From: an uncultured Phycisphaerales bacterium
GTDB lineage: Bacteria > Planctomycetota > B15-G4 > CAYZWU01
Direction of reading: 5' to 3'
NCBI GenBank assembly: GCA_964633825.1
Contig: CAZWHE010000002.1
Span: 4,653 to 68,652 of the forward strand
DNA: 64,000 bases
In this document: piece after piece, positions 3,115-23,508 of the stretch
Position numbering within the stretch: position 1 is the stretch's first letter
Layout: each line of letters starts with the position of its first letter
Notes under the pieces: model-generated
Databases searched by the model: none
What the model saw: the letters and a program-made list of their open reading frames with translations, nothing else
What the model was told of the DNA's origin: nothing
Made by a program: the position numbers and the translations under genes

Positions 3115-3131
3115 CGAAAAGCCGCACCCCG

Positions 3132-5602: not shown

Positions 5603-5758
5603 CTCATTACCTCCATACAACTGTAAAATAACTGACAAGAAGCTCCTTGTTAGCGTCTCGCTCCCCATTCTTCGGAATTTCTGAAAACAAAACTTGACGA
5701 CAAATGCATATTTTCTGCTTTTTTTTAAGTCCGGGATCCGGAGTCTCTGACGGATCAC

Positions 5759-6313: not shown

Positions 6314-6507
6314 TTTCAGCACCTCCGGATCGTTACGAAAAAGCACCTGAAAATCGATGCGTGCACCTTTCACTTTTCCATTTATTCGAATCATCGGCAG
6401 GAAAGACTTGATCTAAAAATCGGTTTGCCGGCATTTTTTCGGACACGGCCGCTCGCTGACTTCAGAATCCTCGCCGGCTTCTCAGGAACAATGAACGCGC
6501 TCGAGGG

Positions 6508-7050
6508 TTACCACGAAGGACCTTCGGCGAGGTAGTATCTCAAATAAGAACCGCCGTCGTGCCTCAGGTTGCCGCTGTTCCGGTTACCGTCGTCGAGGTC
6601 CTCGTCAATTGCGTCCAGCACGTTGGATGTGAGGTAGTTTCTGGCAATGATGAAAACCTCGTTCCCGTACTGGCGATCGTAATTGAACGCCGACTCGCTC
6701 CCGTACTCAAAATCGTAAGATCCGCCATAGGGATGGCTTTCCGGCCACCGGTCGAGATAAGGGCCTTGCCAATCATCGCGGCGCTGGTAAGGCACTCTCG
6801 AGCTCGACATGAGGCCCGGATCCGCGCTCTGCGGGGCATTGTTGGGGAAAACCCCCATGTCGACGTAAAGCGCACTGACGGCGGTCTTGATTGCCTGAAG
6901 ATCGGTCTCCATCCGGCTGATCTTCGCTTTATCAACAAGCTTGGTGACCTGCGGAGTGACAATGGCGGCCAAAATCGACAGAACCGACACAACGATGATC
7001 AGTTCGATGAGCGAAAATCCCCCTTCATTTCCGCGTTTCATGTCCTTCAT
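6508..7050 (-). CDS. GspG-like major pseudopilin, tandem copy C (more diverged)
   Basis: 'MKDMKRGNEGG|FSLIELIIVVSVLSILAAIV' and 'HPYGGSYDFEYGS'. Start chosen at the Met preceded by GGGAAGG. Confidence 0.75.
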   Translation of the reverse strand: MKDMKRGNEGGFSLIELIIVVSVLSILAAIVTPQVTKLVDKAKISRMETDLQAIKTAVSALYVDMGVFPNNAPQSADPGLMSSSRVPYQRRDDWQGPYLDRWPESHPYGGSYDFEYGSESAFNYDRQYGNEVFIIARNYLTSNVLDAIDEDLDDGNRNSGNLRHDGGSYLRYYLAEGPSW

Positions 7051-7316
7051 TTGCCTTCCCACTTTCGTCTGCTTCCCCATAGAGACATGCACTTCCCAAA
7101 TATTGATTCCTTCCCCGATCCTTTTCGGGGCTTTGCGGACAGAAACTTAATGACAAAGTGATTTTTTTTTATATTTGCAAATAGGTTATTTATGGAAATC
7201 CGATCCGGAACCCGAATGGAGAGACGATTGTTCCATTGCTCTCGGTGTAAGGGGTTAAATATTGGCTGGTTTCGAGAGCAATTTTTCCTGTGTTGCCCGG
7301 GAAGACGGTTTATCGG

Positions 7317-8783
7317 CTACTCTTCACCCTTCTCTTCGTGAGCCTCTCCCTTTTCATTCCTCTTGAGTTTTGCGCGATATTGGGAACTGAAATTCGCCAC
7401 GGCTTGGGAGTCGACGATTCTGGGAGTGATCATGACAACAAGCTCGATCTTGTCCTTGATCTTTGTCACGCCCCGAAAAAGAGCACCGAGAAGGGGAATG
7501 TCCTTCAAAACGGGGATGCCCTTTTCCTCTTCGAAAACATTCTCCTTGATCAACCCACCGATGATGATCGTTTGGCCGTTCTCGGCCTGAAGGGTCGTGA
7601 TGATATGACGGTGGTTGATGACCGGTATCTCCTTGTAGGTATCGACGTGCTCGCTCACATCCTGGTCGATGGTCAGGGAAACGACTCCGCTCTTGATAAT
7701 CGTGGGGGTCACGACCAGCGTGATCCCCACGTCCTTGAATTCGACCTGTTCCACAGTGGAAGAACCGACTCCCGCGCCCACGTCTCCCGTCGTGGTCACC
7801 GTCGATTCCACATAGGGTATCTCTTCGATAATCTCGATTTTGGCTTCATGCTCGTTCTTGGCCATGACCGTGGGGCGGGAAATGATATTGAGCTTCGTCA
7901 GCTTGCTCAGCGTGTTGATTGCTCCGTCGATGTTGGCTTTGTCCCCGGCGATCGTGAAATCCACATCGTGCGTTGTCGTCAACAGCCCAGAAACGAGCGT
8001 CGCCGTTGCATCGTCGACGTGGATATTGTTGAGGTTAATTTGGGTGCCGAACTCGTACAGGTCGGTCAAAGAGAACTCCAGGATCTGAGTCTCTATGAGG
8101 ACCTGCCTTTCGCTCGTGTCCACCGAATTCACGAACTTTCTCACCTTCTTCACCACGCTCCGGGGTGCGGTGACAACGACGATGTTGCTCGATTCGTTGA
8201 CCACGACCGTTCCATCCTCCCCGACAAGGCTCGCGAGGTCTTCGGCGATGTCCTTTGCCGGAATCGATGCGAGCTGGAAGAGCTCGGTCTGACTTTCAGT
8301 CGTGCTGGACCGGGAGACGACGTAGACCCCCTCCTCCTTCTGAACATTGCACTTGTGCACGTAACAGAGAGACGAAAACGCTTTACTGAGATCGACCTGA
8401 TTGAATGATGCTTCGATCCTATCCGAGAAGTCGCCGTCCAGCAGCAGGTTGATGTCCGCCATATCGGCGATCATGTTGACCGCGTTGGCCAGGGTCGCCC
8501 CCCTCAGTTCGAAAGAAAAGACTTCTCCACCCGCGATCGGTATCTCATCCCAGGAGAGAGCTTCCTCCTCTTCCTCGCTTGTGCCGAACGGGCCTGTCGC
8601 GGCCTGTTCATCAATCCCCTTTTCGCTTTCGGATTCACAGTTTTCTTTGAAAGACTCGTGGTACTCGTTGATCCTTCGAGAAAGAATGTCATCCTCGCTG
8701 GACAGGCTCCGGCAGCTTCCTCCCATCAGGAGGAGAAGCAGAAAACCGGATAACGCCAGTATCCGTTTCGCTATTTTCTCCAT
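7317..8783 (-). CDS. Secretin (GspD/PilQ family), short lipoprotein form
   Basis: Signal peptide with Cys ('LLMGGSC'), an N0-like domain, one N domain, and a secretin domain with the C-terminal 'IPVLKDIPLLGALFR...ELVVMITPRIV' motif. Confidence 0.85.
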   Translation of the reverse strand: MEKIAKRILALSGFLLLLLMGGSCRSLSSEDDILSRRINEYHESFKENCESESEKGIDEQAATGPFGTSEEEEEALSWDEIPIAGGEVFSFELRGATLANAVNMIADMADINLLLDGDFSDRIEASFNQVDLSKAFSSLCYVHKCNVQKEEGVYVVSRSSTTESQTELFQLASIPAKDIAEDLASLVGEDGTVVVNESSNIVVVTAPRSVVKKVRKFVNSVDTSERQVLIETQILEFSLTDLYEFGTQINLNNIHVDDATATLVSGLLTTTHDVDFTIAGDKANIDGAINTLSKLTKLNIISRPTVMAKNEHEAKIEIIEEIPYVESTVTTTGDVGAGVGSSTVEQVEFKDVGITLVVTPTIIKSGVVSLTIDQDVSEHVDTYKEIPVINHRHIITTLQAENGQTIIIGGLIKENVFEEEKGIPVLKDIPLLGALFRGVTKIKDKIELVVMITPRIVDSQAVANFSSQYRAKLKRNEKGEAHEEKGEE

Positions 8784-9769: not shown

Positions 9770-10372
9770 CTAAGGTCCTCCCCTCTCCATTCCTTCGCGC
9801 CTCTGGTTTCTGACATCGGCGACGAAATATCCCTGCAGAGAGAGCGTGAATGCGGATAACCCTCGTTTCTCTCTAGACTCCATCACCGAAAACGCCGTGA
9901 CTTGCAAACCGATATCGATTCTTTCGAGAAGGGTGATAAAAAGAAACAAGTCCTCGATAACGGCGTTTCCCTTCATTTCGATTTGAGTGCTGAACAAATC
10001 TTTCCTGCCGATGGCCGTACCGCCGCCGCTGCCCGTTAACTGCTTGATGTTCGTGAACACACATGACTGTGATTCGATCGCGCAGCCTCCGGCAAATTTG
10101 GCGACCATGTTGCGCAGCACGAGAGCGCTGTTGATGCCTTCGAATTTCGTTTTCAAAATGTGTTTTGTGGTTTCTCTTTCACACTTCATCACCCTCTTTT
10201 TTTGATCGAGATCGCTCTTTCTGTTCACGAGCATGTCCAGTTTGTTGTTCGAGTCTTCGAGCTTGCTCTTCGTCGAACAGTAGGACAGAATCGTCGGAAG
10301 GGGAGACAGCGTCACAACAATCAGCAACGGAAGCAGCACAAAAAGAAACCTGTTGCCGATAAACATGGTCAT
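9770..10372 (-). CDS. PilN/PilO/GspM-like bitopic inner-membrane assembly protein (weak)
   Basis: Single N-terminal TM 'FLFVLLPLLIVVTL' followed by a coiled-coil-like segment. It is the first gene of the minus-strand operon. The assignment rests on architecture and position only. Confidence 0.35.
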   Translation of the reverse strand: MTMFIGNRFLFVLLPLLIVVTLSPLPTILSYCSTKSKLEDSNNKLDMLVNRKSDLDQKKRVMKCERETTKHILKTKFEGINSALVLRNMVAKFAGGCAIESQSCVFTNIKQLTGSGGGTAIGRKDLFSTQIEMKGNAVIEDLFLFITLLERIDIGLQVTAFSVMESREKRGLSAFTLSLQGYFVADVRNQRREGMERGGP

Positions 10373-11234
10373 TGCTCCGGTTAACGTTTTAAAACTTCAG
10401 CTTAATATTCGCCTCTTCGAGTGTTTTTTCCACCCGTGCAGACCCCGCGCCTCTTCCTATCGTATATTCGACGCTTTTAAAGAGGCCGCACTCTCTGAGG
10501 TGGGCGATGCAGTTTTCAAAAACAGAAGAATCACCCATGAAATCATCCTTGATCTTTACCGCAAGAACAACATCACGCCCGTCATCGAGCTGCAGTCGAG
10601 CGCGCCGCGAGAAGTGAGCCTGGCCCCCGGCGATGTGATCGATATCAAGTTTTATTACGCCCCGGAGCTCAACGAGAGCCAGCCCGTCCGCCCGGACGGC
10701 GCCGTCTCACTTCAGCTCGTGGGAGACGTCTTCGTACAAGGGCTGAATCCCGCCGAATTACGCAAGAAACTGATGGACCTCTTCGCCCCGCATCTCAGAA
10801 ATCCCGACGCGGCCGTGGTCGTCAGGTCGCTCGTCAACCGCAGGGTCTTTGTCGGGGGGCAGGTCAATGCGCCCGGCCTGATCGAGATGCCGGGCCGGCT
10901 GACCGTTCTCGAAGCCATCATGCAGGCCGGCGGGTTTCACCTCGAGACCGCCGAGGTGTGCAATGTGGTGGTTATCCGCCACAAAGACGGCCGGAGGTAT
11001 GGATGCGCTCTCGATTTCGGCAAGGCCCTGGAGGGAGAGGAATTCCTTCCCTTCTCGCTCGAACCCTATGACATCGTCTATGTGCCGGAAACAACGATCA
11101 CCCGAGTCACCAAGTGGATCGATCAGCATATCAACCAAGTGATTCCAATCGGATTCGTGTCCACTGTATCCCGCGGCGATTCGACATTCGGACTCTCTAC
11201 GGGGACAGGCCCCCGCACCGTTTACCTGCGTTGA
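10353..11234 (+). CDS. Polysaccharide export protein (Wza/GumB-like Poly_export + SLBB); true start unresolved
   Basis: 'SLAPGDVIDIKFYYAPELN...VRPDGAVSLQLVGDVFVQGLNPAELRKKL' and 'VFVGGQVNAPG'. The listed start overlaps the divergent gene by 20 bp and no signal peptide is seen in this frame. Confidence 0.7.
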   Translation: MPINMVIAPVNVLKLQLNIRLFECFFHPCRPRASSYRIFDAFKEAALSEVGDAVFKNRRITHEIILDLYRKNNITPVIELQSSAPREVSLAPGDVIDIKFYYAPELNESQPVRPDGAVSLQLVGDVFVQGLNPAELRKKLMDLFAPHLRNPDAAVVVRSLVNRRVFVGGQVNAPGLIEMPGRLTVLEAIMQAGGFHLETAEVCNVVVIRHKDGRRYGCALDFGKALEGEEFLPFSLEPYDIVYVPETTITRVTKWIDQHINQVIPIGFVSTVSRGDSTFGLSTGTGPRTVYLR

Positions 11235-11253: not shown

Positions 11254-12918
11254 ATGGCTGAACAATTGATGATCAAAAAGAAGCCGCCGACCTATTCCTC
11301 GCTGAGGGACTATTGCTACGTTGTTTTCCGGCACAAGTGGAAAGCCCTCCTCATCTTCTCGGTTATCTTTACAGCCGCGACTTCTTTCGTTCTGCTTTCC
11401 ACCGACACCTACAGGTCTGAAGCCAAGCTCCTGGTCCGGCTCGGCTGGGAAAGCGTGAACGTCGATCCCACGGCGACAACGGGTGAAAGGGCCGGAAGCG
11501 TTCACCAACCCCAAACGATCCAGCTGAACACGGTGCTCGATATCCTGAAAAGCCAGGCCCTGGCGGGAGAGATCGTGGACAGGATCGGGCCGGAAACGTT
11601 TTCCAGGCCCCTCGAATACAAAAATCCCTACAACAGCGGCGCGGGCTCCGAAAAAAGCGAGCCGATCCTCGTTACGGTCCGTAACTTCCTGAAGAAGGCG
11701 AAGGACGAAGCCGGTGATTTTGTGAAAGGATTGATCACCGGAATCGGAAGCGGTCGGGAACTGAGCCGCCGCGAAAAAGCAATCGGGATACTGATGAACT
11801 CCACGGAAGCCCAGCTTCTGAGAAACACGCATATCATCTCCATCGCCTATACGGCCCAGATCCCGGAGCTGGCCCAGGACGTTGTCAAGGTGCTGACGGA
11901 CCTCTACCTCGAAAAACACAAGCTCGTCTACCGCAATCCGGGCTCCTATGAGTTTCTCAACGAACAATACCAGAAGTCCCGGGCCGAGGTGGACAGGATC
12001 GAATCACATCTGAGGGATTTGAAAAAGGAAAACGGCATTGTGTCGGTGGAACAGAGGCTCGATTTTGTCGAAACCCACGCCCTGACCATAAAGAAAGAGC
12101 TGAACCAGGCCACGGCCGACCTGGCCTCATCGGCGGCCAAGATCGCGGACCTGAAAAAGAAACTGGCCGCGCTTCCGGAAAGGCAGCTGACGGGCGAATC
12201 GACGAGCAAGGATTTCTCGACGATCGACAGCCTTCTCGAACGGCTTCATTCGCTCCGGAACGAGGAACAGGAAGCGCTCGCGAAATTCACCGACGACTCG
12301 GAACCGGTCCGCGTGGTGCGCCGGAAGATCGCCGAGGTCCGGGAACTGCTGAAAAACGAGAAACCGAGAGAGATCAAGTTGGAAACCTGGGGGATCAACA
12401 TGGCCCACCAGGAAGTGGAATCCTCCCTGCGCGCAGAGGAAACAGCTTTGATATCAATGGAGGCCAAGACGGGAGAACTGAAAAAACAGCTGGTCCTCGC
12501 AGAGAAGGAACGGGGGGATCTGCTCGACATGAAATACCGCTTTTGTCAGCTCGAGCTCGATCTGAGCAAAGAAAAGGAGAATTTTTCTCAAATCGCCAAG
12601 AAACTGAACCATGCCAGCATGGAACAGACGCTGGAAGACAAGAGGATCTCGAGCGTCAGCATCATTCAACCCGCCACCTTTCCTTTGCAGCCTGAGGATT
12701 CCAAGAAGATCGTCGTCCTGCTCGTCGGATTCATCGGAGGCCTTGTTGGCGCCGGTGTTCTCGTTTTCGTTTTCGAATCGATGGACCACACGTTCAAAAC
12801 GCTCGAAGAGGTGGAAGAAAACCTGCAGATACCGGTGCTGGTAGCCATTCCACGGGGACGGGTGAATAAAATTTCCATCCCGGCAGAGATGAAGGAACAA
12901 ACAAATGCCAGTGCATGA
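11254..12918 (+). CDS. Polysaccharide chain-length determinant (Wzz/Wzc N-terminal domain, GumC-like)
   Basis: N-terminal TM 'ALLIFSVIFTAATSFVLL', a long coiled-coil periplasmic region, and a C-terminal TM 'IVVLLVGFIGGLVGAGVLVFV'. Confidence 0.75.
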   Translation: MAEQLMIKKKPPTYSSLRDYCYVVFRHKWKALLIFSVIFTAATSFVLLSTDTYRSEAKLLVRLGWESVNVDPTATTGERAGSVHQPQTIQLNTVLDILKSQALAGEIVDRIGPETFSRPLEYKNPYNSGAGSEKSEPILVTVRNFLKKAKDEAGDFVKGLITGIGSGRELSRREKAIGILMNSTEAQLLRNTHIISIAYTAQIPELAQDVVKVLTDLYLEKHKLVYRNPGSYEFLNEQYQKSRAEVDRIESHLRDLKKENGIVSVEQRLDFVETHALTIKKELNQATADLASSAAKIADLKKKLAALPERQLTGESTSKDFSTIDSLLERLHSLRNEEQEALAKFTDDSEPVRVVRRKIAEVRELLKNEKPREIKLETWGINMAHQEVESSLRAEETALISMEAKTGELKKQLVLAEKERGDLLDMKYRFCQLELDLSKEKENFSQIAKKLNHASMEQTLEDKRISSVSIIQPATFPLQPEDSKKIVVLLVGFIGGLVGAGVLVFVFESMDHTFKTLEEVEENLQIPVLVAIPRGRVNKISIPAEMKEQTNASA

Positions 12919-13603
12919 CGAGAAAGCAGCCGGGGATGCCGCAGCGGTATTGAACCTCCCCGTCGAGATCAGGGAGTATTATATCGCTCTCAGGGACCGC
13001 CTTCTTATGTCCGCCGGCGACTCCCGGAACAGGCCGCGCCTGGTCGCCGTCATGAGCTGCAACAGCGGGGAAGGCGTCAGCACGGTCGCCGCCAACCTCG
13101 CCGTGATCCTTGCCCAATACGAAAACGTTCTTCTCGTGGATGCAAACACGAACAACCCCTCGGTACACAACACGTTCGGGATGAATCCTTCTCCCGGGCT
13201 GGTCGATATTCTGCAGTCCGATGAGCAGAAGATCGCGTTGAACAATGTTGCCTGGAACCTCGACGTTCTTTGCGCCGGCCGCATCGACGGTTACGCGCCG
13301 GTCGTGCTCGAATTCCAACAGAGCCTCAACCGGCTCCTGACAGAGTGCAAAAATGACTACAAGTTCATCATACTCGATTCGCCTCCCGTCAACGGAAAGA
13401 GCACGGCGATCCGCCTGGCGAGCCTGGTGGATGACGTGATTCTCGTTATCGAGGCGGAGCGGACAAGGCGGGAAACGGTGCGGCGAGCCAAGGAACAGCT
13501 TCTTCAGGTAAGAGCGAACATACTCGGAATCGTGCTGAACAAGAGACGATTTCCCATTCCGAACTATCTCTATCGCAAGCAAACAGAAATTCGGAGTTAT
13601 TGA
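12905..13603 (+). CDS. Bacterial tyrosine kinase (BY-kinase)-like ATPase domain (CapB/Wzc-C type) with a lysine-less Walker A
   Basis: Aligns to the BY-kinase P-loop region, but 'GEGKST' is replaced by 'GEGVST'. Walker A' is 'VLLVDANTN' (second Asp replaced by Asn). Walker B 'FIILDSPP' is present. The C-terminus 'NYLYRKQTEIRSY' is Tyr-rich. Confidence 0.7.
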   Translation: MPVHDEKAAGDAAAVLNLPVEIREYYIALRDRLLMSAGDSRNRPRLVAVMSCNSGEGVSTVAANLAVILAQYENVLLVDANTNNPSVHNTFGMNPSPGLVDILQSDEQKIALNNVAWNLDVLCAGRIDGYAPVVLEFQQSLNRLLTECKNDYKFIILDSPPVNGKSTAIRLASLVDDVILVIEAERTRRETVRRAKEQLLQVRANILGIVLNKRRFPIPNYLYRKQTEIRSY

Positions 13604-13615: not shown

Positions 13616-14758
13616 ATGGATATGGTTACCGGTAAAATCTGGAAAATCCTGGGTTCCATCTTCCGCCCGGCGCGGGCGCGGAAGGAATTCGGCATCCATT
13701 CCATCGAAGAGTTCGAAACACTGCTCGATCGCGAGAGAACACGCTGTGAACGGAATTCACATCTTTTAACACTCGTAGTCTTCGACGTTTTCGACGCAGT
13801 CGACGTCTCCGACGCAGTCGACGCGGCCCGTGCCGGGAGCTCGTCGGTGAAGCGGATATCGAAAGCCATCACCGGACGGATTCGCTGTATCGACGAAGCC
13901 GGATGGATCGCCGGAGGACGGATCGGCGTCATCCTTCCCGACACTCCCGCAGAGGGTGCGCGGAAATTCGCCGACGACGTGATCGACAGGATCGCATCCC
14001 TGTCGCTGATTCCGCCGAAATACACCATATCGACCTACCCCTCGCAGCGCCGTCCCGGTCGTCGCGCCGGCGCTTCCGATTCCGCCGGGAGTCAAGCGGA
14101 GCCGATGGCTAAACGCGACATGTTCACCTTCCGTATCGTGCCGGCCTGGAAACGCGCCCTCGACTGCACGGCCGCGGCGCTCCTGGTAATTCTGTGTCTC
14201 CCGATCCTCGCGGCCATGGCCCTTTGGATCGCGATCGTCTCGCCGGGGCCCGTCTTTTTCAAACAGGAAAGGATCGGGGCCTGGGGGAGGCCGTTCACCT
14301 GCTGGAAATTCCGCACCATGAAGGTCAACGCCGACAATTCAACGCACAGAGAATATGTCAGGAATCTGATCAAGGACGATCCCGGATCAAGCGGTAATAA
14401 ACCGATGACCAAGCTCGATTCCGGCAGTTCCCTGATCATTCCTTTGGGAAAGCTCATCCGCAAAACCGGTCTCGACGAGCTGCCGCAGCTTTTCAACGTG
14501 CTGCGCGGCGAGATGAGCCTCGTCGGACCCCGCCCCTGCCTTCCATACGAGTACGAAGAATATCGCCTCTGGCACACCAGGAGGTTCGATGCTGTTCCCG
14601 GCCTGACCGGTCTCTGGCAGGTCAGTGGAAAGAACAGGACCACATTCAAGGAAATGATGCGCATGGACATCAATTATTCGAGACGGACATCTCTCTGGCT
14701 CGATTTCAAGATCCTTGTGATGACCATGCCGGCCATCATCGGTCAAATTCTCAGATAA
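13616..14758 (+). CDS. Priming sugar-phosphate transferase (Bac_transf, WbaP/PssY-like) fused to an N-terminal degenerate GGDEF-like domain
   Basis: C-terminal 'LDELPQLFNVLRGEMSLVGPRP' sugar-transferase signature and a TM 'LLVILCLPILAAMALWIAIV'. The N-terminal ~130 aa align to GGDEF ('RCIDEAGWIAGGRIGVILPDTPAEGARKFADDV' versus 'RAIDLPCRYGGEEFVVIMPDTALADALRIAERI'). Confidence 0.75.
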   Translation: MDMVTGKIWKILGSIFRPARARKEFGIHSIEEFETLLDRERTRCERNSHLLTLVVFDVFDAVDVSDAVDAARAGSSSVKRISKAITGRIRCIDEAGWIAGGRIGVILPDTPAEGARKFADDVIDRIASLSLIPPKYTISTYPSQRRPGRRAGASDSAGSQAEPMAKRDMFTFRIVPAWKRALDCTAAALLVILCLPILAAMALWIAIVSPGPVFFKQERIGAWGRPFTCWKFRTMKVNADNSTHREYVRNLIKDDPGSSGNKPMTKLDSGSSLIIPLGKLIRKTGLDELPQLFNVLRGEMSLVGPRPCLPYEYEEYRLWHTRRFDAVPGLTGLWQVSGKNRTTFKEMMRMDINYSRRTSLWLDFKILVMTMPAIIGQILR

Positions 14759-14830: not shown

Positions 14831-15850
14831 ATGTCTCAACAGGTGGCAATCGGAGTTGTGGGTGCGGGCTACTGGGGACCGAACCTGATCAGGAATTTTC
14901 GAGCCGTACCCGGATTCCGGGTCAAGTATATCTGCGATATCGATCCCGCCCGGTTGGAGCACATGAACCGGCTCTATCCCGATATCAAGGCAGTCGAGGA
15001 TTTCGAGGTTCTCATCAACGACGACGATCTCGACGCCGTTGCCATTGCCACACCCGTCTCGCTCCATTTCGAGCTGGCCAAGATGAGCCTGCGGGCCGGA
15101 AAACACACCTTCATCGAAAAACCGATGGTCTCGTCGTCCGCCGAAGGACGTGAGCTGATCGATCTGGCCGAGGAAATGAAACGGACGCTCATGGTCGGCC
15201 ACGTCTTCATCTACACCTCGGCGGTCAGAAAAATCAAAGAGATCGTGAACAGCGATGATTTCGGAGAGATCTACTACATCAGCGCGAGGCGCCTGAACCT
15301 CGGCCTGTTTCAGAAAGACATCAATGTGGCATGGGACCTCGCACCCCATGACATTTCGATCATTCTCCACCTCATGGGCCGGCCTCCTAAATCGGTGAAC
15401 TGCCAGGGCAAAGCCCACGTGACACGCGGCATCGAAGACGTGACCAACATGTCGCTCAACTTCTACAACGGGGAATTCGCAACGATCCAGAGCAGCTGGC
15501 TCGATCCCAACAAGATCCGGATCATGACGATTGTGGGCAGCAAGATGATGATCGTCTACGACGACACGGAACCCCTGGAAAAGATCAAGATATACGATAA
15601 AAGGGTCGAGGTCCCGCCCCACTACGACTCGTTCGCCGAGTTCCAGTACTCTTACCATTACGGCGACGTACACTCACCCTATCTCAAGCAGACGGAACCC
15701 CTTCAAGTGGAATGCTGGCACTTTCTCGACTGCATCAAATCCGGCGCCCGGCCGGAATCGGGAGGGCGGGAGGGCCTCGAAGTGATTCAGATCCTCGAAG
15801 CGGCGCAGAAGTCGATCGGGAACTGCGGCGGCAGTGTCGATATTTCGTAA
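14831..15850 (+). CDS. Gfo/Idh/MocA-family NAD(P)-dependent sugar oxidoreductase (WbpB-like)
   Basis: Rossmann motif 'IGVVGAGYWGPNL' and the family-typical 'EKPM' motif. Confidence 0.85.
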   Translation: MSQQVAIGVVGAGYWGPNLIRNFRAVPGFRVKYICDIDPARLEHMNRLYPDIKAVEDFEVLINDDDLDAVAIATPVSLHFELAKMSLRAGKHTFIEKPMVSSSAEGRELIDLAEEMKRTLMVGHVFIYTSAVRKIKEIVNSDDFGEIYYISARRLNLGLFQKDINVAWDLAPHDISIILHLMGRPPKSVNCQGKAHVTRGIEDVTNMSLNFYNGEFATIQSSWLDPNKIRIMTIVGSKMMIVYDDTEPLEKIKIYDKRVEVPPHYDSFAEFQYSYHYGDVHSPYLKQTEPLQVECWHFLDCIKSGARPESGGREGLEVIQILEAAQKSIGNCGGSVDIS

Positions 15851-15931
15851 AAGCCTCTGTTCAACTCATTTCCGGTAAATGCCGATATGAATCGGAAGAA
15901 CCGATAAGTAACAAAAACGGGATGCTCTCTC

Positions 15932-16435
15932 ATGAGTGATGGTGTGCCGGCGACATGCAAGATCGCGTCCGATGTCAAGCTCGGCGACGGCGTGAAGATA
16001 TTCGAATTTGTCAACCTCTACGGGTGCGAGATCGGCGGCGGAACGAAAATCGGCACTTTCGTTGAAATACAGAAGGGCGCCCGGATCGGCAGGAACTGCA
16101 AGATATCGAGCCACACCTTCATCTGCGAAGGCGTTTCCATCGAAGATAACGTTTTCGTGGGCCACAACGTCACTTTCATCAACGACGCTTTTCCAAGGGC
16201 GACGAGAGAAGACGGCTCCCTCCAGACGGAAGAGGACTGGGTCTGCATCGAAACACTTGTCAAGAAGGGCGCCTCGATCGGTTCGAGCGTCACTTTGCTT
16301 TGCGGGATCACGATCGGCGAAAACGCCGTCATCGGAGCGGGGAGTGTCGTGACGGGGAATGTTCCGGCGGACACGATCGTCGCCGGCAATCCCGCACGGG
16401 TGCTCAGAAAAATTAACAAGGTAGAAATCAAATGA
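15932..16435 (+). CDS. Hexapeptide-repeat N-acetyltransferase (WbpD-like, left-handed beta helix)
   Basis: Repeated [LIV]-G-x-x-x-x hexapeptides and a C-terminal 'VAGNPARVL'. Confidence 0.8.
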   Translation: MSDGVPATCKIASDVKLGDGVKIFEFVNLYGCEIGGGTKIGTFVEIQKGARIGRNCKISSHTFICEGVSIEDNVFVGHNVTFINDAFPRATREDGSLQTEEDWVCIETLVKKGASIGSSVTLLCGITIGENAVIGAGSVVTGNVPADTIVAGNPARVLRKINKVEIK

Positions 16436-17565
16436 AAGTTCCATTTCTCGATCTGAAAGCTCAATACGAATCGATCAAGGGCGAAATTTCGGCCGCGCTT
16501 CAGGAGGTGCTGGACAACACGGCTTTCGCCGGCGGCCCCTTCGTGGCACGCTTCGAAGAGGAATTCGCCGCGTTCTGCCGCTGCGAAGACGCCGTCGGCG
16601 TGGGGAGCGGCACCGATTCTCTCTGGATGGCACTCCAGGCGCTCGGCGTTGGCGAGGGCGACGAGGTGATCACCGTTCCCAACACGTTCATCGCCACGGC
16701 CGAAGCGATCAGCTTCTGCGGCGCACGGCCTGTTTTTGTCGACGTCGACGAGCGGACATACACGATGAACCCCGCTCTGATCGAAGACGCCGTCACGCCG
16801 CGGACGAAATGCATCATTCCCGTTCACCTCTACGGCCAGACGGCCGACATGGGCGCCATTATGGAAATCGCCGACAAAAGAGGACTCTTTGTCGTTGAAG
16901 ACGCCTGCCAGGCCCACGGCGCCGAATACAAAGGCCGGCCGGCGGGATCGATCGGCGACGCGGGGTGTTTCAGCTTCTATCCGGGGAAGAACCTGGGAGC
17001 CTACGGCGAAGCAGGCGCGGTCGTGACCAACGACACCGAACTGGCCGAAAAGATACGCATGCTGCGCGACCACGGGCAGTCGAAAAAGCACTACCACTCG
17101 AAGATCGGCTGCAACTCGCGTATGGACGGCTTCCAGGGCGCCGTGCTCGGTGTGAAACTCAAATACCTCCCCGCCTGGAACGCCGGGCGGAGAAAAATCG
17201 CCAAGATGTACGGCGAACTCCTGGCCGAGACGGACGGCATCGTTCTCCCCCAGGTCGCGGACTATGCAAAACACGTCTTCCATATCTACGCGGTACGAAC
17301 AAGAAAGCGCGACGAGTTCATGAGCGCTCTGGCCGCCGAGGGCGTTGCCAGCGGGATTCACTATCCCATTCCCGTGCACCTCCAAGAGGCCTACGGCTTT
17401 CTGAAACTGAAAAAGGGGTCATTCCCAGTCGCTGAAAAGTGCGCCGAGGAACAGGTTTCGCTCCCCATGTTCGCGGAAATGACCCGGGATCAGGTCAAAT
17501 ACGCGGCCAAGACGATCGGTCGCTTCAGCTGGCGCAGAAGCGGCACTCTCATTTCGTGGAGCTGA
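16432..17565 (+). CDS. DegT/DnrJ/EryC1/StrS PLP-dependent sugar aminotransferase (WbpE-like)
   Basis: 'MKVPFLDLKAQY' N-terminus, 'GSGTDSL', and the 'SFYPGKNLGAYGEAGAV' lysine region. Overlaps the upstream gene by 4 nt. Confidence 0.85.
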   Translation: MKVPFLDLKAQYESIKGEISAALQEVLDNTAFAGGPFVARFEEEFAAFCRCEDAVGVGSGTDSLWMALQALGVGEGDEVITVPNTFIATAEAISFCGARPVFVDVDERTYTMNPALIEDAVTPRTKCIIPVHLYGQTADMGAIMEIADKRGLFVVEDACQAHGAEYKGRPAGSIGDAGCFSFYPGKNLGAYGEAGAVVTNDTELAEKIRMLRDHGQSKKHYHSKIGCNSRMDGFQGAVLGVKLKYLPAWNAGRRKIAKMYGELLAETDGIVLPQVADYAKHVFHIYAVRTRKRDEFMSALAAEGVASGIHYPIPVHLQEAYGFLKLKKGSFPVAEKCAEEQVSLPMFAEMTRDQVKYAAKTIGRFSWRRSGTLISWS

Positions 17566-17643
17566 TGAAATCCTCGCCGGCCGGAGCGCCGAAATCGCCG
17601 GCCGGAGCACTCGGAACAACACACTCCATTACAGCGGAATCCG

Positions 17644-19035
17644 ATGAACCAGGACAGCGTTGACCAATTGTTCGACAGGATCAGGGAAGGGGTCGGGCTC
17701 ACCTTTAACCAGACATCCCTCTCTTCCCTCGGCCTGGCCGTCATCGTTCTCCTCGGCTTGGCCGTGCTGACCCTTCCGCGGCGCTACGCTCTTCTTCCGC
17801 TGCTGGTCGGCGCATGCTTCATACCGGCCGGGCAGCGCATCGCGGTTTTCACACTCGATTTCACGCTGCTGAGAATCATGGTTCTCTTCGGCTGGGCGAG
17901 AATCATTCTCAAGAAAGATAACCGCGACTTTCACTGGAAAACGATCGACGTTCTCATCATCGCCTGGGTCTTGTCCCGATCGGCCGCGTATATCCTGCTC
18001 CACGGCACGATGTCGGCCGTCATATACAGGCTCGGCGGGATGTTCGACGCCCTCGGCATGTACTTTCTGTTCCGAATGCTGATCGAGGACTGGGACGATG
18101 CCTACAGGATCGTCAAGGTTTTCATCATCCTCAGCATCCCGGTGGCGTTCTTCTTCCTGATCGAGAACGGGACCGGCCGCAATCTTTTTTCCATATTCGG
18201 AGGAGTTCCCGAAGCCGCGAGGATCCGCGGGGATGATCTGCGATGCCAGGGCGCTTTCGTACACCCCATCGCGGCGGGGTGTTTCTGGGCTTCGCTCATG
18301 CCGGTGATGTTGTTCTTCCTCTGGCGCAGCGGAAAAGAAAAGATCCTGGCCATCGCCGGGCTCTGCTGTTCCGCGCTGATCATTCTCTTCTGCGCCTCCT
18401 CGACACCGGTCGTCGCCGCCCTCGCCGGCCTCGGAGCGGCCTGCCTCTTTCCAGCCAGGAGGCTCATGAAATGGATCAGGTGGGGAGCTCTCTGCTCGAT
18501 CGTGGGACTCCACCTCGTAATGGACGGGCCCGTTTGGGCGCTGATCGCAAAAACGGACATCGTGGGAGGTTCCACCGGTTACCACAGATATCAGCTCATC
18601 CAGCAGGCGATCACCCGGATCGACGAATGGTGGCTTATCGGAACGACGACCACGGCACACTGGGGACATTTCCTCTTCGATGTGGCCAACAATTATGTTT
18701 CGGAAGGGGTCCGGGGCGGATTGATCGCACTCGTCTTCTTTCTGGCGATCATCGGATTTGCGTTCCTGGGGATCGGGCGATCGCTCCGTCTGAACAGCGG
18801 CGATTCCATGAAAACACTCTTTGCATGGCTTCTGGGGGGGATGGTTTTCGCTCACTGCACATCCTTCATCGCACTGAATTACTCCGAACAGAACACGATG
18901 ATCTGGTTTCTCACCCTCGCCATCGTGGGGCGCCTGACGCCCCTCGTCGTGAAAGAGGAAGCCCTGGTCGAACAGGGTCCGTTTGCACTGGGACGAGAAG
19001 CGGAGCTCGTGAACAGGAAAGGCTTGCTGCGATGA
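17644..19035 (+). CDS. O-antigen ligase / Wzy-type polymerase-like polytopic membrane protein
   Basis: At least 10 predicted TM helices with a large loop containing 'RIRGDDLRCQGAFVHPIAAG', as in Wzy_C / O-antigen ligase-like proteins. Confidence 0.65.
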   Translation: MNQDSVDQLFDRIREGVGLTFNQTSLSSLGLAVIVLLGLAVLTLPRRYALLPLLVGACFIPAGQRIAVFTLDFTLLRIMVLFGWARIILKKDNRDFHWKTIDVLIIAWVLSRSAAYILLHGTMSAVIYRLGGMFDALGMYFLFRMLIEDWDDAYRIVKVFIILSIPVAFFFLIENGTGRNLFSIFGGVPEAARIRGDDLRCQGAFVHPIAAGCFWASLMPVMLFFLWRSGKEKILAIAGLCCSALIILFCASSTPVVAALAGLGAACLFPARRLMKWIRWGALCSIVGLHLVMDGPVWALIAKTDIVGGSTGYHRYQLIQQAITRIDEWWLIGTTTTAHWGHFLFDVANNYVSEGVRGGLIALVFFLAIIGFAFLGIGRSLRLNSGDSMKTLFAWLLGGMVFAHCTSFIALNYSEQNTMIWFLTLAIVGRLTPLVVKEEALVEQGPFALGREAELVNRKGLLR

Positions 19036-19973
19036 CGGACGTCGATCTTTCCATAATCATCGTCAGCTTCAACACGAGGAGCCGGACCCTCGAATGCCTG
19101 CGCTCGGTGTATGATCAGACAAGGGACACTCGCTTCGAGGTCATCGTCGTCGACAACGCATCGAGCGACGGCTCCGGAGAGGCTATCGCGTCCGAATTTC
19201 CCAAGCTGAACCTTATCGAGCTCGAGGACAACATCGGTTTTGCCAGGGCCAACAACCTCGCCGCCGAGCGCGCGGCCGGAAAATATCTCCTGCTGCTCAA
19301 TCCCGACACCCTTGTGCTCGACGGCGCCGTCCAGAGACTCCATGCATTCGCCGAGTCTCGCGGAAACGCCGGGATCTGCGGGGGCAGGTCGATTTTTCCG
19401 GACGGAACGCTCAATCCCCTCTGCTGCAGGCGCAGCCCCACCCCCTGGAGCATGTTCTGCATCGCCACGGGCCTGTCCCACATCTTCAAGGAGAGCCGGC
19501 TGTTCAATCCGGAGGCCTACGGAGCGTTTCAGCAGAACAGCGTTAAAGAAGTGGACATTATTCACGGAAGCTTCCTCCTCATCGGGAGCGGGCTCTGGAA
19601 GGAGCTGGGAGGATTCGATCCCGCCTTTTTCATGTACGGAGAAGAAGTCGATCTCTGCACGCGCGCCCGGAAAAAAGGATTCCCCTGCTTCTACACCCCC
19701 GGCGCAACGGTCATCCATTACGGCGGGGCGTCCGAAAAGATCTTTGCCGACAAGATGGTCCGTCTCCTTTCCGCTAAATCGACATTCATCAGGAGACACT
19801 GGCCCGGCCGTTCTTCCTGGTTCGGCATCTCCATGCTCTGGTTGTGGGTACTGCGTAGGTATCTGTTTACGATCTTGTCGTCTCTCTTCCCCACCCATGG
19901 CGACAGGCGGAACGTCTCGGAAATGAAAAAGATCTGGAAGCACCGATCAAATTGGCTTGTAGGATATAGATGA
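19031..19973 (+). CDS. Family 2 glycosyltransferase
   Basis: 'LSIIIVSFNTRSRTLECLRSV...EVIVVDNASSDGS' and a 'DxD'-like motif. The ATG overlaps the upstream stop. Confidence 0.8.
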
Positions 19974-20038
19974 CAAATCCCTTAAACTACATGGAAGGAC
20001 GGACCTTACAAGGGCATCTATGTTCAAGGAGACTTTCG

Positions 20039-21496
20039 ATGACAAGAACAAGCCATCTAATCATCCTCTCAGCCATGCTTCTCGCTTTTTTCCTGTGCCA
20101 CTCGGCCGTCTCGTGCAGCTGGGCGAAACTGTATTACGTGGACAGCGAAGCGAGCGGAACAAATGACGGATCATCCTGGAACAACGCCTGGACGAGCTTC
20201 GGCGATATCGACTGGAATTCGGTAAAGGCCGGCGACACGATCTTCATCTCCGGAGGAAAATCCTCCAGGACTTATCTCGAAACTCTCGACGTGAAAACAT
20301 CAGGGAGCCCGGGCAGCCGGATCAGGATTCGCGTGGGACAGGACAGAAACCATTGCGGCAAAATCATCATCGACGGACAGAAAACCCGAAACCACTGCAT
20401 TGTCCTGAACCAGCACGTCGCCATAGACGGGAAATACGACGGCGAAATACGCATCATCTGCAGGAACTCCAAATGGGCCGGGATCAAGTCTGGCAGAGCC
20501 GTAGGGAACTTCATCCGGTACGTCGAAATCCATGATTGCGGCGACGGAACGGCTGCCGGCGGCTTCAACCACGGGATCCACCTGAACAAAGCGGATGGAT
20601 GCGAGGTCTCACACTGCCACATCCACCACAACCACCAGGACGGGTACAACGCAAGCGGCAGCGTCGGTGATTCGTTCGGCAACAACAAGGTCCACCACTG
20701 CAAGATCACGGATAATTCCGATGACGGGATCGCCTGCCGGAGCGGGCACGACATCTACAACAATGTCATCGCCGACTGCTTTCGCCATCCCGACGGGGGC
20801 GAGGGGCATCCCGACGGCATCCAGGCGCAGGGTTCCTTCACCCGCATATGGAACAACAAGATCTACGACTGCCACACCCATGCCATATTCGCCGATCCTT
20901 TGAGAAGCGGCGACGCCGAATACATATGGATCTGGAATAACCTCGTCTACAGGACCAGCGAATCCCTTCGCATGCACGGCATCAAGGTGAAAAAAGAGAC
21001 CGGCACGAACTCGATCAGCAACATCCTCATCGCCAACAACACGGTCGTCGATACCGGTTACGGCGCGATCGAGATCAAATGCGACGCCACATCGGACGTG
21101 ATCGTGAAGAACAACATCGTCTATAACTGCAGGTTGCTCGGCAAGCAGGGCTTCGTGATGGGAACCAACGACGACAACGGGCTTATCGATTACAACTGCG
21201 TCAACGGCAGAAAGCTGGGCAGCACGAGAATGAAATGGGACGGGAATGTCTACGATTACGCAGATTTCGTCTCCATCGGATTCGGGCAGGAGCACGGACA
21301 GACGGACGATCCCTTTTTCGCCGACTACTCCGAAATGGACTACAACGGGAACGGCCAGGATTTCAGGCTCACGGGCAAGAGCAAGTCGTGCAGGGGCAAG
21401 GGGGACGATCTCTCCGAGTTTTTCACCACCGACATGGAAGGCGCGACGAGATCGGTGTGGGATATCGGGTGTTACGCGTATACGAAAGGGGAATAA
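20039..21496 (+). CDS. Lipoprotein with right-handed parallel beta-helix (pectate-lyase-like) repeats; candidate polysaccharide lyase, epimerase or depolymerase
   Basis: Signal peptide plus lipobox 'LLAFFLCHSAVSC'. Repetitive Asn/His/Gly-rich rungs ('HHNHQDGYNASG', 'IWNNKIYDCHTHAIFAD', 'IWIWNNLVY'). Confidence 0.6.
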   Translation: MTRTSHLIILSAMLLAFFLCHSAVSCSWAKLYYVDSEASGTNDGSSWNNAWTSFGDIDWNSVKAGDTIFISGGKSSRTYLETLDVKTSGSPGSRIRIRVGQDRNHCGKIIIDGQKTRNHCIVLNQHVAIDGKYDGEIRIICRNSKWAGIKSGRAVGNFIRYVEIHDCGDGTAAGGFNHGIHLNKADGCEVSHCHIHHNHQDGYNASGSVGDSFGNNKVHHCKITDNSDDGIACRSGHDIYNNVIADCFRHPDGGEGHPDGIQAQGSFTRIWNNKIYDCHTHAIFADPLRSGDAEYIWIWNNLVYRTSESLRMHGIKVKKETGTNSISNILIANNTVVDTGYGAIEIKCDATSDVIVKNNIVYNCRLLGKQGFVMGTNDDNGLIDYNCVNGRKLGSTRMKWDGNVYDYADFVSIGFGQEHGQTDDPFFADYSEMDYNGNGQDFRLTGKSKSCRGKGDDLSEFFTTDMEGATRSVWDIGCYAYTKGE

Positions 21497-21555
21497 ACTG
21501 ATTCGACCCGAAAGCTCTTTCCGAAAATAGGTGGTCGGATCGGCAAATCGGAACA

Positions 21556-23508
21556 ATGTGCGGCATCGCCGGGACAATCAGGCTTGACGGGGAAAAAGCC
21601 GACCGCGGTCTTCTGGAAAGAATGATCGACCGGATCAGGTACCGGGGACCGGACGAGACAGGGTTTTTCATCGACGAGAACGCCGGGATGGCTCACGCGC
21701 GGCTCAGCATCATCGACCTGTCCACGGGGAGCCAGCCCATTCACAACGAGGACAAGACCCTGTGGATCGTATTCAACGGCGAGATCTACAATTATGTGGA
21801 GCTGAGAAAGTCCCTCGTGGAGCGGGGCCACCGCTTCACCACAAAGTCCGACACGGAAGTGATCGTCCATCTCTACGAAGAAAAAGGAGAGGATTGCGTC
21901 AACGATTTCAACGGCCAGTGGGCCTTCGCGATCTGGGACACGCGGAAGAGAAAGATCTTCCTCTCGAGGGACCGCCTGGGAATACGGCCCCTCTTCTACA
22001 CGGTCTCAGACAAGGCATTCCTTTTTTCCTCGGAGATCAAGTCGCTGTTCGCCGCCCCGGAAGTGAGACGGGAGCTCGATCCCCGGGCGCTCGACCAGAT
22101 ATTTACGTTCTGGGTCACCATTCCGCCGAAGACGGCTTTCAAGGGAATCCGGGAGCTCCCGCCCGGCCACTCGATGACCATGAAAGACGGCGACGTAAAA
22201 GTACGGCCTTACTGGAAGCCCGATTTTTCCCATATCCCCCGGAAGGTGGACGACAACGAATGCGTCGACAGGCTTCGCTCCCTCCTGATCGATTCGACAC
22301 GCCTCAGGCTCCGCTCCGACGTGCCCGTCGGCGCCTACCTGAGCGGCGGGCTCGATTCGTCCGTCACGACCGCGCTGATCAGAAAATTCAGCGACTCCCG
22401 CCTGAGCTCCTTTTCGATCGTCTTCGACGACGCCGAGTTCGACGAGAGCGGTTTCCAGCGGGACGTGATCGACATGCTTCGAACCGATCACCGGGAGATT
22501 TGTTGTTCCGCGACCGACATCGGCGGGGTTTTCCCCGATGTAATATGGCACTCCGAAAAACCGGTCGTGAGAACGGCCCCTGCGCCTCTCTACCTCCTCT
22601 CCCGCCTCGTGAGAGACAGCGACTACAAGGTCGTCCTCACCGGCGAGGGATCGGACGAGATTCTGGGGGGTTACGATCTGTACAAGGAAGCCAAGATCAG
22701 GAGATTCTGGGGAGCATATCCCGACTCGAAGATCCGCCCGCTCCTTCTGAAAAGACTCTACCCCTACCTGCAGAACATACAGGCGCAGCCCGAAGCCTAT
22801 CTCAAGGCCTTTTTCCACGTGAGGCCCGACGACCTGACCCACCCGTTTTTCTCCCACCTCCCCCGCTGGGAGATGACATCGAAGCTCAAGATCTTCTTCA
22901 GCGACCGGATGAAGTCCGAGCTCAATGGATACAACGCATATGAAGAGCTCGAAAACCTGATTCCGAATGAATACTTCGAATGGGACGGCTTCTGCAGGGC
23001 CCAGTTTCTCGAAAGCACGACCCTTCTCCCCGGCTACATCCTTTCTTCGCAGGGAGACAGGATGGCCATGGCCCACTCGGTGGAGGGAAGGTTCCCTTTT
23101 CTCGACCACCGCGTCGTCGAATTCGCGGCCAGCCTTCCTCCCCGCCTCAAGATGAAGGCTTTGAACGAAAAATTCATCCTGAAGCGGGCCGCCGAGGACC
23201 TGATACCGGCATCGGTCGGGAAGAGGCCGAAGCAGCCCTACCGCGCGCCCGAGGCCGTCAGTTTCATCGGTATGGGGGAACGTTCGAACGGCCGGGATTA
23301 TGTGGAGGAGCTCCTCTCCCGGAAACGCATCGACGAGGCCGGAATATTCAATGCATCGGCAGTGGAAAAGTTGATTGGAAAGATCAAGAGAAGGAAGGCC
23401 ATCGGCATCAAGGACAACATGGCCCTGGTCGGAATTCTTTCCACCCAGCTTCTCTTGGAACAGTTTGTCACTCGATTGGGGAAGATTTCAAACCATGGAA
23501 AAGATTGA
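21556..23508 (+). CDS. asnB: Asparagine synthetase (glutamine-hydrolysing) family amidotransferase
   Basis: 'MCGIAG' class-II glutamine amidotransferase N-terminus and PP-loop 'YLSGGLDSS'. 650 aa. Confidence 0.9.
   Translation: MCGIAGTIRLDGEKADRGLLERMIDRIRYRGPDETGFFIDENAGMAHARLSIIDLSTGSQPIHNEDKTLWIVFNGEIYNYVELRKSLVERGHRFTTKSDTEVIVHLYEEKGEDCVNDFNGQWAFAIWDTRKRKIFLSRDRLGIRPLFYTVSDKAFLFSSEIKSLFAAPEVRRELDPRALDQIFTFWVTIPPKTAFKGIRELPPGHSMTMKDGDVKVRPYWKPDFSHIPRKVDDNECVDRLRSLLIDSTRLRLRSDVPVGAYLSGGLDSSVTTALIRKFSDSRLSSFSIVFDDAEFDESGFQRDVIDMLRTDHREICCSATDIGGVFPDVIWHSEKPVVRTAPAPLYLLSRLVRDSDYKVVLTGEGSDEILGGYDLYKEAKIRRFWGAYPDSKIRPLLLKRLYPYLQNIQAQPEAYLKAFFHVRPDDLTHPFFSHLPRWEMTSKLKIFFSDRMKSELNGYNAYEELENLIPNEYFEWDGFCRAQFLESTTLLPGYILSSQGDRMAMAHSVEGRFPFLDHRVVEFAASLPPRLKMKALNEKFILKRAAEDLIPASVGKRPKQPYRAPEAVSFIGMGERSNGRDYVEELLSRKRIDEAGIFNASAVEKLIGKIKRRKAIGIKDNMALVGILSTQLLLEQFVTRLGKISNHGKD

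Follow-up and report, generated by a model that had tools for sequence, protein, structure and literature searches.

A truncated GGDEF-like domain with an I-site motif fused to a small phosphoglycosyl transferase in a Phycisphaerales exopolysaccharide cluster

Layout of the gene and its two domains

We analysed a stretch of 64,000 nucleotides (nt) from an uncultured Phycisphaerales bacterium (contig CAZWHE010000002.1, positions 4,653-68,652; hereafter the window, whose positions serve as coordinates throughout), and focused on a gene at 13616-14758 that joins a GGDEF-like domain to a phosphoglycosyl transferase (PGT) of exopolysaccharide (EPS) synthesis. According to the open reading frame (ORF) listing and its translation, the gene has an ATG start and encodes 380 amino acids (aa), in which a GGDEF-like domain that retains only the inhibitory site (I-site) precedes a small monotopic PGT (monoPGT). 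The N-terminal domain (N-domain), degenerate and truncated (residues 24-145, 13685-14050), was delimited by phmmer searches of PDB sequences, a family profile, and AlphaFold2 (AF2) and Foldseek, and runs through the elements a1-b1-a2-b2-b3-a3-b4. It is followed by a low-complexity linker (residues 143-175, 14042-14140), predicted to be disordered with predicted local distance difference test (pLDDT) values below 50-65, and by the catalytic domain of the small monoPGT (residues 177-378, 14144-14749), defined by Pfam, Foldseek and conservation. The gene and all of its features, including the motifs described below, lie on the forward strand. As an identical protein recurs on three independent metagenome contigs and over 140 homologues show the same two-domain layout, a gene-fusion artefact or frameshift was rejected.

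The C-terminal half gave the sole Pfam match in the protein, to Bac_transf (PF02397), over residues 179-375 (200.6 bits, E = 2e-59, model positions 1-178 of 179). Comparison of the modelled C-terminal domain with the PDB by Foldseek retrieved PglC (8e37, E = 4e-14, template modelling score (TM-score) by target 0.80) and WbaP (8t53, E = 9e-12). The Asp-Glu dyad D287-E288 (14474-14479), which we take to be the counterpart of the PglC catalytic residues, is invariant among 103 homologues, as are P196 and the PRP motif. In the AF2 model, a re-entrant membrane helix occupies residues 177-208 and consists of two helices (177-193 and 195-208) with a break at P196. An earlier annotation made from the DNA letters (hereafter the sequence-only reading) had described this half as a Bac_transf transferase of the WbaP/PssY type; the family assignment held, and the type label did not. 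In a large monoPGT, four N-terminal transmembrane helices and a cytosolic nucleotide-binding-like domain would come ahead of the catalytic part. Hydropathy revealed one hydrophobic segment only, at about residue 180, and the large-monoPGT models TIGR03022, TIGR03023 and TIGR03025 matched only with their C-terminal catalytic part (e.g., 256-439 of 445) and below their cut-offs (249.5 vs 295.55; 208.8 vs 403). A large PGT of the WbaP type was thus ruled out, and the enzyme is better described as a PglC-like small monoPGT with an N-terminal soluble domain. With its invariant DE dyad, PRP motif, re-entrant-helix Pro and predicted PglC fold, the transferase half looks active. Judged by these features, the gene product is the initiating enzyme of a Wzx/Wzy-type EPS pathway, which would load polyprenyl phosphate with a sugar-1-phosphate taken from a UDP-sugar.

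For the N-terminal half, a phmmer search of PDB sequences with residues 1-175 found the diguanylate cyclase 3IGN (E = 3.8e-8), with WspR and further GGDEF proteins next in rank. A profile of 41 family sequences matched GGDEF domains only in the PDB (3IGN, 2.2e-12; GcbC, 9.5e-9; GacA, 6.8e-8; DgcR, 1.5e-7; WspR, 2e-6). Among curated models, TIGR00254 (GGDEF) was matched at E~1e-5 with 25.1 bits vs a cut-off of 37.4, and nine NCBIfam diguanylate-cyclase models matched below threshold, all across residues ~30-131. A search with PF00990, which the sequence-only reading had proposed as a check, gave no significant match for the window copy: there was none at E<=10 with residues 1-165, and residues 24-145 reached 12.3 bits (E = 0.14) vs a cut-off of 23.8. 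The same model matched 24 of the 41 family members at E<=1 (best 5.4e-7). The profile matches span only positions ~14-116 of GGDEF models that are 161-168 positions long. Longer family members showed no further Pfam domains (REC, PAS), and automatic JGI annotation tags a few members as 'GGDEF domain-containing'. Since Pfam does not recognise the N-domain itself, Pfam-based architecture surveys would label the family as plain sugar transferases.

Fold prediction, the other check proposed for this half, led to GGDEF structures only. The full-length AF2 model, built on 103 homologues, had a mean pLDDT of 85.7 and a predicted TM-score (pTM) of 0.78, with pLDDT of 90-97 in the core of the N-domain; residues 30-141 were modelled as a1-b1-a2-b2-b3-a3-b4 and residues 143-175 as disordered, with the PGT domain thereafter. 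When residues 24-145 were modelled alone (pLDDT 87.6, pTM 0.83), GGDEF domains made up 50 of the 50 top Foldseek matches (E down to 2.4e-7), at TM-scores of 0.65-0.79 by query and ~0.5-0.7 by target. Foldseek with the full-length model likewise returned, beyond PglC and WbaP for the C-terminal domain, GGDEF domains alone for the N-domain. The high TM-scores by query, set against target values of only ~0.5-0.7, indicate a palm-like GGDEF fold that ends after b4, so that about two-thirds of the domain is covered and the C-terminal third is absent. On these alignments and models, the N-domain is almost certainly a truncated, degenerate GGDEF domain, and the earlier claim of a GGDEF relationship for the N-terminal ~130 aa is borne out.

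The sequence-only reading had also considered cyclase activity improbable, with the catalytic GG(D/E)EF replaced by GGRIG. The replacement is real and the register was one residue off: it is AGGRI (A99-G100-G101-R102-I103, 13910-13924) that sits under the GGEEF of 3IGN and WspR in the alignment. Across the 292 aligned domain copies on which the N-domain conservation counts are based (family mean column identity ~43%), these five columns are unconstrained, save that the last holds a hydrophobic residue. Every profile alignment further contains a family deletion of ~9 residues at the FK..ND..GH GTP-binding loop of active cyclases, and D57, the equivalent of the metal Asp, varies across the family. 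Loss of the motif, deletion of the GTP-binding loop and absence of the C-terminal third of the fold together uphold the view that cyclase activity is improbable.

The window copy carries one peculiarity of its own. Tandem Repeats Finder located an 18-nt tandem repeat at 13782-13823 (2.3 copies, 91% match), which codes for 10 extra, private residues (…AVDVSDAVDA…) within the loop at the place of the cyclase GTP-binding motif. This b1-to-a2 loop comprises 31 aa in the window copy vs 21 aa in 218 of the 292 copies, and a loop as long as that of the window copy occurs in only 2 of the 292; the Asp/Val/Ala-rich insertion of 10 residues is missing from the closest homologues. The stretch VVFDVFDAVDVSDAVDA, in which 'VVFDVFD…' had been taken as a match to GGDEF, contains this repeat and holds no remnant of a metal or GTP site. 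Because it is the product of an 18-nt tandem duplication without counterpart in the closest homologues, it resembles the metal site of GGDEF domains mostly by chance.

Conservation of the I-site residues and extent of the family

Codons, alignment and family counts define a signature, R88-I-R90-C-I-D93-E-A-G96-W97 (13877-13906), in which R90 and D93 form the RxxD of the primary I-site. The four residues RCID (R90-D93, 13883-13894) align residue-for-residue with the I-site RxxD of known domains, namely RQSD in 3IGN and RSSD in WspR. The sequence-only reading had placed RCID where the inhibitory-site RxxD normally sits, six residues upstream of the catalytic motif. Its position was confirmed; the spacing was corrected to the canonical five residues between D93 and A99, because AGGRI and not GGRIG lies under GGEEF. 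R90, D93 and G96 are each found in 289 of 289 copies (entropy 0). In helix a1, the motif E40-x2-R43-x2-R46 (13733-13753), supported by family counts and alignments, corresponds to the E-x-x-R-x-x-R of WspR, 3IGN, GcbC, DgcR and GacA; from these alignments R46 is the counterpart of WspR R198, and hence the equivalent of the secondary I-site arginine. It is kept in 283 of 287 copies, with E40 in 280 and R43 in 265 of the same 287. Next in conservation after R90, D93, G96, R46 and E40 come Y141 (276/285), P142 (275/282), A115, R88 (269 Arg and 15 Lys) and W97 (273/289).

In WspR, c-di-GMP (cyclic diguanosine monophosphate) at the I-site is bound by R242 together with R198 from a neighbouring GGDEF domain, and the variants R242A and R198A purify nucleotide-free (PMC2270323). 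Of the secondary-site arginines raised in the sequence-only reading, the one in helix a1 is therefore present as R46, and the one in a3 is not, as its position is occupied by D121, which is not conserved in the family. We take the D121 position to be that of PleD R390 and PelD R402. Basic residues near this third site are limited to K/R at 117 (210/291) and R/K at 88, which might stand in for the missing arginine. Since the I-site residues are the most conserved and the catalytic columns have drifted, the family appears to have shed the half of the domain that serves catalysis, while the allosteric c-di-GMP site persists in both of its halves. As read from the alignment, the I-site residues appear to be the only strongly constrained surface residues of this dead mini-GGDEF domain. 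The pattern of lost catalytic elements, an RxxD invariant at its canonical position and a nearly invariant R46 agrees with the signature of degenerate GGDEF receptors that had been put forward, a class to which PelD, BcsE and PopA belong.

A survey of other PGTs for the same fusion, likewise suggested at the outset, uncovered a large family. Searches with the full-length protein returned at least 120 clusters with 42-54% identity and >90% query coverage. A word-indexed homologue search with the N-domain alone gave no matches, and an exhaustive HMMER search was needed, which yielded 1,158 representatives at 50% identity (E<=1e-3). At this identity level the family thus counts no fewer than 1,158 clusters, and most come from Planctomycetota, Desulfobacterota and Myxococcota. 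Architectures were assigned in 268 fetched proteins by local hidden Markov models of each half: 144 proteins are N-PGT, 19 are N-N-PGT, one is N-N-N-PGT (P0121, 648 aa), three are N-N, and 101 are N-only, many of the last being contig-end fragments. The additional length of the longer members consists of further N-domain copies. Every tandem copy retains R46, R90 and D93, and the copies differ systematically elsewhere (e.g., position 102 is Q in the first and H in the last). The tandem members include P0007, P0010-P0013, P0015, P0021, P0022 and P0121, among others, with loci L027, L039, L073 and L091.

The two halves also occur as separate genes. At six split loci (L006, L037, L069, L077, L088 and L102), hosted by Desulfobacterales, Calditrichota and unclassified metagenome-assembled genomes (MAGs), an N-domain ORF of ~150-170 aa lies directly upstream of a small-PGT ORF of ~240 aa, and the break between the genes falls within the linker segment. 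Every PGT ORF possesses a separate Met, and the N-domain ORFs end right after the Y-P-S motif, which rules out assembly frameshifts as their origin. In addition, free-standing N-domain proteins of ~140-170 aa were found without an adjacent PGT (L016, L024, L056, L068, L080, L100 and L108), several of which have the common N-terminus …RLRVGFFKSSRNSS.DLL.GKEAFQQAIAKERYRSDR…. Because no PGT gene adjoins these copies, the N-domain may regulate targets besides PGTs.

In a further scan, a degenerate DNA pattern that encodes R-x-R-x-x-D-[DE]-x-G-W-x5-h-G-x-x-L-P-x-T was run against genomes, one for each species; fewer than one chance match is expected given its estimated content of ~42 bits. The scan produced 105 matches, and all 105 encoded the N-domain. 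The carriers were mainly MAGs of Planctomycetota (Pirellulales, Thermoguttaceae, Phycisphaerales), Desulfobacterota, Myxococcota, Acidobacteriota, Lentisphaerota and Calditrichota. The sole cultured carrier in the scan was Fontivita pretiosa B-254 (class Phycisphaerae, complete genome), whose homologue shares 36% identity, retains the triad and lies downstream of a Wzc-like gene. The nearest relatives of the window protein (P0002 and P0003) are encoded on Phycisphaerales MAG contigs.

Genomic neighbourhood in the window

By its gene content, the PGT gene sits in an operon-like EPS cluster of the Wzx/Wzy type. Directly upstream on the same strand are genes for a Wza/OPX protein (10353-11234; Pfam Poly_export/SLBB), a polysaccharide co-polymerase (PCP)/Wzz-like protein (11254-12918; Pfam GNVR/Wzz, weak) and a P-loop protein resembling bacterial tyrosine kinases (BY-kinases; 12905-13603; Pfam ParA/AAA_31). 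Pfam scans of the downstream EPS genes (14831-27159, also forward) identified a GFO/IDH/MocA oxidoreductase, a hexapeptide acetyltransferase, a DegT aminotransferase, a Wzy candidate, a GT2 glycosyltransferase, a beta-helix protein, an AsnB-like amidotransferase, a Wzx flippase, a sulfotransferase and a GT4 glycosyltransferase; the oxidoreductase, acetyltransferase and aminotransferase are WbpB/D/E-like. The Wzy polymerase candidate (17644-19035, forward) has 463 aa and ~12 hydrophobic segments, with no Pfam match. Two of the listed starts appear to be too far upstream. The ORF at 18243-19973 overlaps the Wzy candidate and its GT2 domain does not begin before residue 270, which probably puts the real GT2 start near 19040. 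For Wzx (22980-25271, forward, Polysacc_synt_3, listed with 763 aa), the domain and transmembrane (TM) segments begin at about residue 294-316 and its opening ~530 nt coincide with part of the AsnB-like gene, which makes an internal start probable.

By eye, the BY-kinase-like protein reads SGEGVST vs the Walker A consensus GxGK[ST], with Lys changed to Val, and DAN vs DxD in Walker A'; like EcpK of Myxococcus xanthus, the protein is possibly a pseudokinase. Among the fused family loci, a BY-kinase homologue was present at 38 of 79 and a PCP homologue at 32 of 79, within an 8-kb slice per locus. The EPS cluster includes the sulfotransferase gene (25285-26163, forward), and ~24 kb downstream there is a gene for a sulfatase (49742-51166, forward). 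From these genes the polysaccharide is probably sulfated, which would fit a source like Planctomycetota or Phycisphaerae.

About 9 kb upstream, a divergent cluster on the reverse strand (1915-8783) resembles a type II secretion system (T2SS) or type IV pilus and encodes T2SSF, a T2SSE ATPase, three pseudopilins and a secretin. The T2SSE-type ATPase (3132-4928, reverse) contains an MshEN domain (Pfam E = 3.8e-16), a type of module known to bind c-di-GMP. This domain has an intact-looking tandem motif, RIGDRLIQAGYITKRQLDISLKEQ then PLGQILINLGFIDEEKLSRTIAEE, which by eye resembles the published c-di-GMP-binding MshEN motif. The ATPase would thus be another candidate receptor for c-di-GMP, at ~9 kb from the PGT, which makes c-di-GMP signalling plausible for the organism. 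No tRNA genes were found in the 64-kb window.

Proposed function and comparison with known systems

Considering these findings together, we regard it as probable, from the conservation pattern, that the N-domain, at the cytoplasmic N-terminus of the enzyme, is an I-site-only receptor module that binds c-di-GMP or a related dinucleotide. With slightly less confidence, we propose that this module gates the committed step of a Wzx/Wzy-type EPS pathway by the following mechanism. Intercalated c-di-GMP would contact R90 and D93 of one N-domain and R46 of another, cross-linking the two domains either in trans, between enzyme molecules, or in cis, in members with two or three copies. Ligand-dependent ordering would then shift the position of the N-domain on the transferase domain, to which it is tethered by the flexible linker of ~35 residues, and pathway flux would be set at the first committed step, which consumes undecaprenyl phosphate (Und-P). 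By analogy with the EPS systems characterised so far, high c-di-GMP is expected to activate. In this scheme we infer the ligand identity, the dimerisation and the effect on transferase activity. The 144 fused, 19+1 tandem and six split pairs link the two halves functionally, and tandem N-N-PGT proteins with the triad in both copies would fit a two-domain sandwich like that of the REC* and GGDEF* domains of BcsE (PMC8892547). More tentatively, the mini-GGDEF domain may represent a distinct and widespread class of cyclic-dinucleotide receptors (fused, tandem, split and free-standing) that would dimerise or clamp on dimeric c-di-GMP and thereby switch Wzx/Wzy initiation directly.

Several observations weigh against the receptor proposal. 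D121 stands at the place of the third I-site arginine, the scores against PF00990 and TIGR00254 are below their curated cut-offs, and the N-domain of the window copy contains a 10-aa slippage insertion. No GGDEF, EAL or PilZ genes were present among the window ORFs scanned, and no Rfam family reached the gathering threshold in the 64 kb, hence no c-di-GMP riboswitch. We know of no solved receptor as minimal as this domain, from which a third of the GGDEF fold is gone. Small monoPGTs are reported to act as monomers (PMC12802240), so that a dimerisation-based switch would be without precedent in this class.

A different view, which we consider unlikely though the strongest of the alternatives, takes the N-domain as a ligand-independent fossil GGDEF domain that offers a docking or oligomerisation surface, for example to the PCP/BY-kinase complex, to Wzx/Wzy or to other glycosyltransferases, and its invariant Arg and Asp as partners in salt bridges within or between proteins in place of a nucleotide site. 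In its favour, the third canonical I-site arginine is missing, PCP and BY-kinase genes are often co-located, and the split-gene forms imply that the N-domain and PGT interact as separate proteins; in the full-length model, a pTM of 0.78 in spite of the disordered linker may point to a fixed placement of the two domains. However, the residues under the strongest constraint are those that contact c-di-GMP in WspR, and free-standing copies far from any PGT retain the motif. RxxD is dispensable for the GGDEF fold, and many active cyclases do without it. Given this dispensability and the drift of all catalytic residues, the invariance of RxxD in 289 of 289 copies is hard to explain structurally.

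The identity of the bound nucleotide bears on a further and distinctly less probable explanation, namely that the site binds another guanine nucleotide (3',3'-cGAMP [cyclic GMP-AMP], (p)ppGpp or GTP) and couples EPS initiation to another signal. Desulfobacterota and Myxococcota, in which the family is common, use Hypr-GGDEF cGAMP signalling, and the Geobacter Hypr GGDEF 6D9M was the third-best profile match. GGDEF-type domains can evidently bind other guanine nucleotides, since the PDB entries 9G85 and 9G86 are titled as PleD with c-di-GMP plus ppGpp or pppGpp. Against such a ligand, the RxxD together with the a1 arginine is the documented I-site for c-di-GMP, and the loop for GTP (A-site) is deleted.

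The conserved Y141 could also be read in another way, with the N-domain serving chiefly as substrate or adaptor for tyrosine phosphorylation by a BY-kinase at Y141 (motif V-Y-T-Y-P-S), as CapB1 acts on the small PGT CapM. Its near-invariance together with that of P142, the BY-kinase gene directly upstream in the window and at 15 of 55 loci, and the CapM and WcaJ precedents cited in PMC12802240 would agree with this. It is nevertheless improbable as the main role: the BY-kinase-like protein of the window reads, by eye, GEGVST vs the Walker A GEGKST and so may be a pseudokinase, Y141 lies within strand b4 of the model and is probably structural, and the conservation of the I-site would be left unexplained, although phosphorylation is compatible with c-di-GMP gating. 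Finally, despite the homology to GGDEF domains, an active or residually active diguanylate cyclase supplying c-di-GMP locally can be set aside, as AGGRI replaces GG(D/E)EF, the GTP loop has been lost, the position of the metal Asp varies and the fold lacks its C-terminal third.

If the c-di-GMP receptor proposal is true, no earlier case would exist of a phosphoglycosyl transferase with a second-messenger receptor of its own. Direct control by c-di-GMP would then reach beyond synthase-dependent systems to Wzx/Wzy pathways in Planctomycetota, Desulfobacterota, Myxococcota and Acidobacteriota, through a family that is large and found mainly in poorly studied, polysaccharide-rich phyla. A receptor placed in the priming transferase would let the cell gate the scarce Und-P carrier by a second messenger, which is a simple and testable mechanism, and the N-domain would define the smallest known I-site scaffold, with possible use in the design of c-di-GMP biosensors. 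Experiments could start from Fontivita pretiosa B-254, as a cultured carrier.

That c-di-GMP can act directly and post-translationally on polysaccharide production is well documented for synthase-dependent polymers such as cellulose, alginate, Pel and poly-N-acetylglucosamine (PNAG). Such control has been assigned to synthase-dependent systems, and control at the PGT step of Wzx/Wzy pathways is incompletely understood, with the Tyr-phosphorylation of CapM and the action of the response regulator EpsW on EpsZ as known cases (PMC12802240). In the full-text literature searched, which did not cover the 2021 PGT fusion survey, neither a GGDEF-like/PGT fusion nor a c-di-GMP-binding PGT was described.

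Of the known I-sites, those of WspR and PleD are alike in having an RxxD five residues before the GG(D/E)EF position and a helix-a1 arginine (WspR R198), which cross-link two GGDEF domains by way of intercalated c-di-GMP. The equivalent helix-a1 arginine of PleD is presumably R313. Unlike the window protein, WspR and PleD are active cyclases that use the site for feedback inhibition; as there is no cyclase activity to inhibit here, the output must be the fused transferase. Degenerate GGDEF domains with an I-site also act as receptors in the control of EPS machines in PelD of Pseudomonas aeruginosa and in BcsE of enterobacterial cellulose secretion (PMC8892547). PelD combines a dead GGDEF domain with an intact RxxD I-site (R367GLD) in post-translational exopolysaccharide control (PMC8892547); it is, however, a separate TM-GAF-GGDEF* subunit with a full-length GGDEF fold in a synthase-dependent machine, whereas the domain described here has ~120 aa, is fused or adjacent to a PGT and belongs to a Wzx/Wzy system. 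PelD_GGDEF (PF16963) matched one of the 41 family members (E = 0.1) and no match to GIL was listed, and by these profile results the N-domain is a degenerate lineage independent of PelD/GIL. In BcsE, too, a degenerate GGDEF domain carries the RxxD (R415TGD), and dimeric c-di-GMP lies between two RxxD-bearing domains (PMC8892547), resembling what is suggested here for tandem N-N-PGT proteins; yet BcsE is a soluble, unfused accessory regulator of a synthase, and its second site is provided by REC* instead of a GGDEF-like copy or an a1 arginine.

On the transferase side, EpsW-EpsZ of M. xanthus and the REC-fused small monoPGTs likewise place the initiating PGT of a Wzx/Wzy pathway under direct control of a small signalling domain (PMC12802240). 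In EpsW-EpsZ, the input is receiver-domain phosphorylation, which acts upon a dimeric large monoPGT, whereas the window protein has a GGDEF-derived domain and a presumed cyclic dinucleotide. PglC shares the re-entrant helix, the Asp-Glu dyad and the fold of the catalytic domain, and differs in being a catalytic domain of ~200 aa alone, to which the window protein adds an N-terminal extension of 175 residues with the putative receptor module. The principle of a degenerate GGDEF I-site receptor is thus already known, while the PGT partner, the Wzx/Wzy class of pathway and the extreme reduction of the domain appear to be new.

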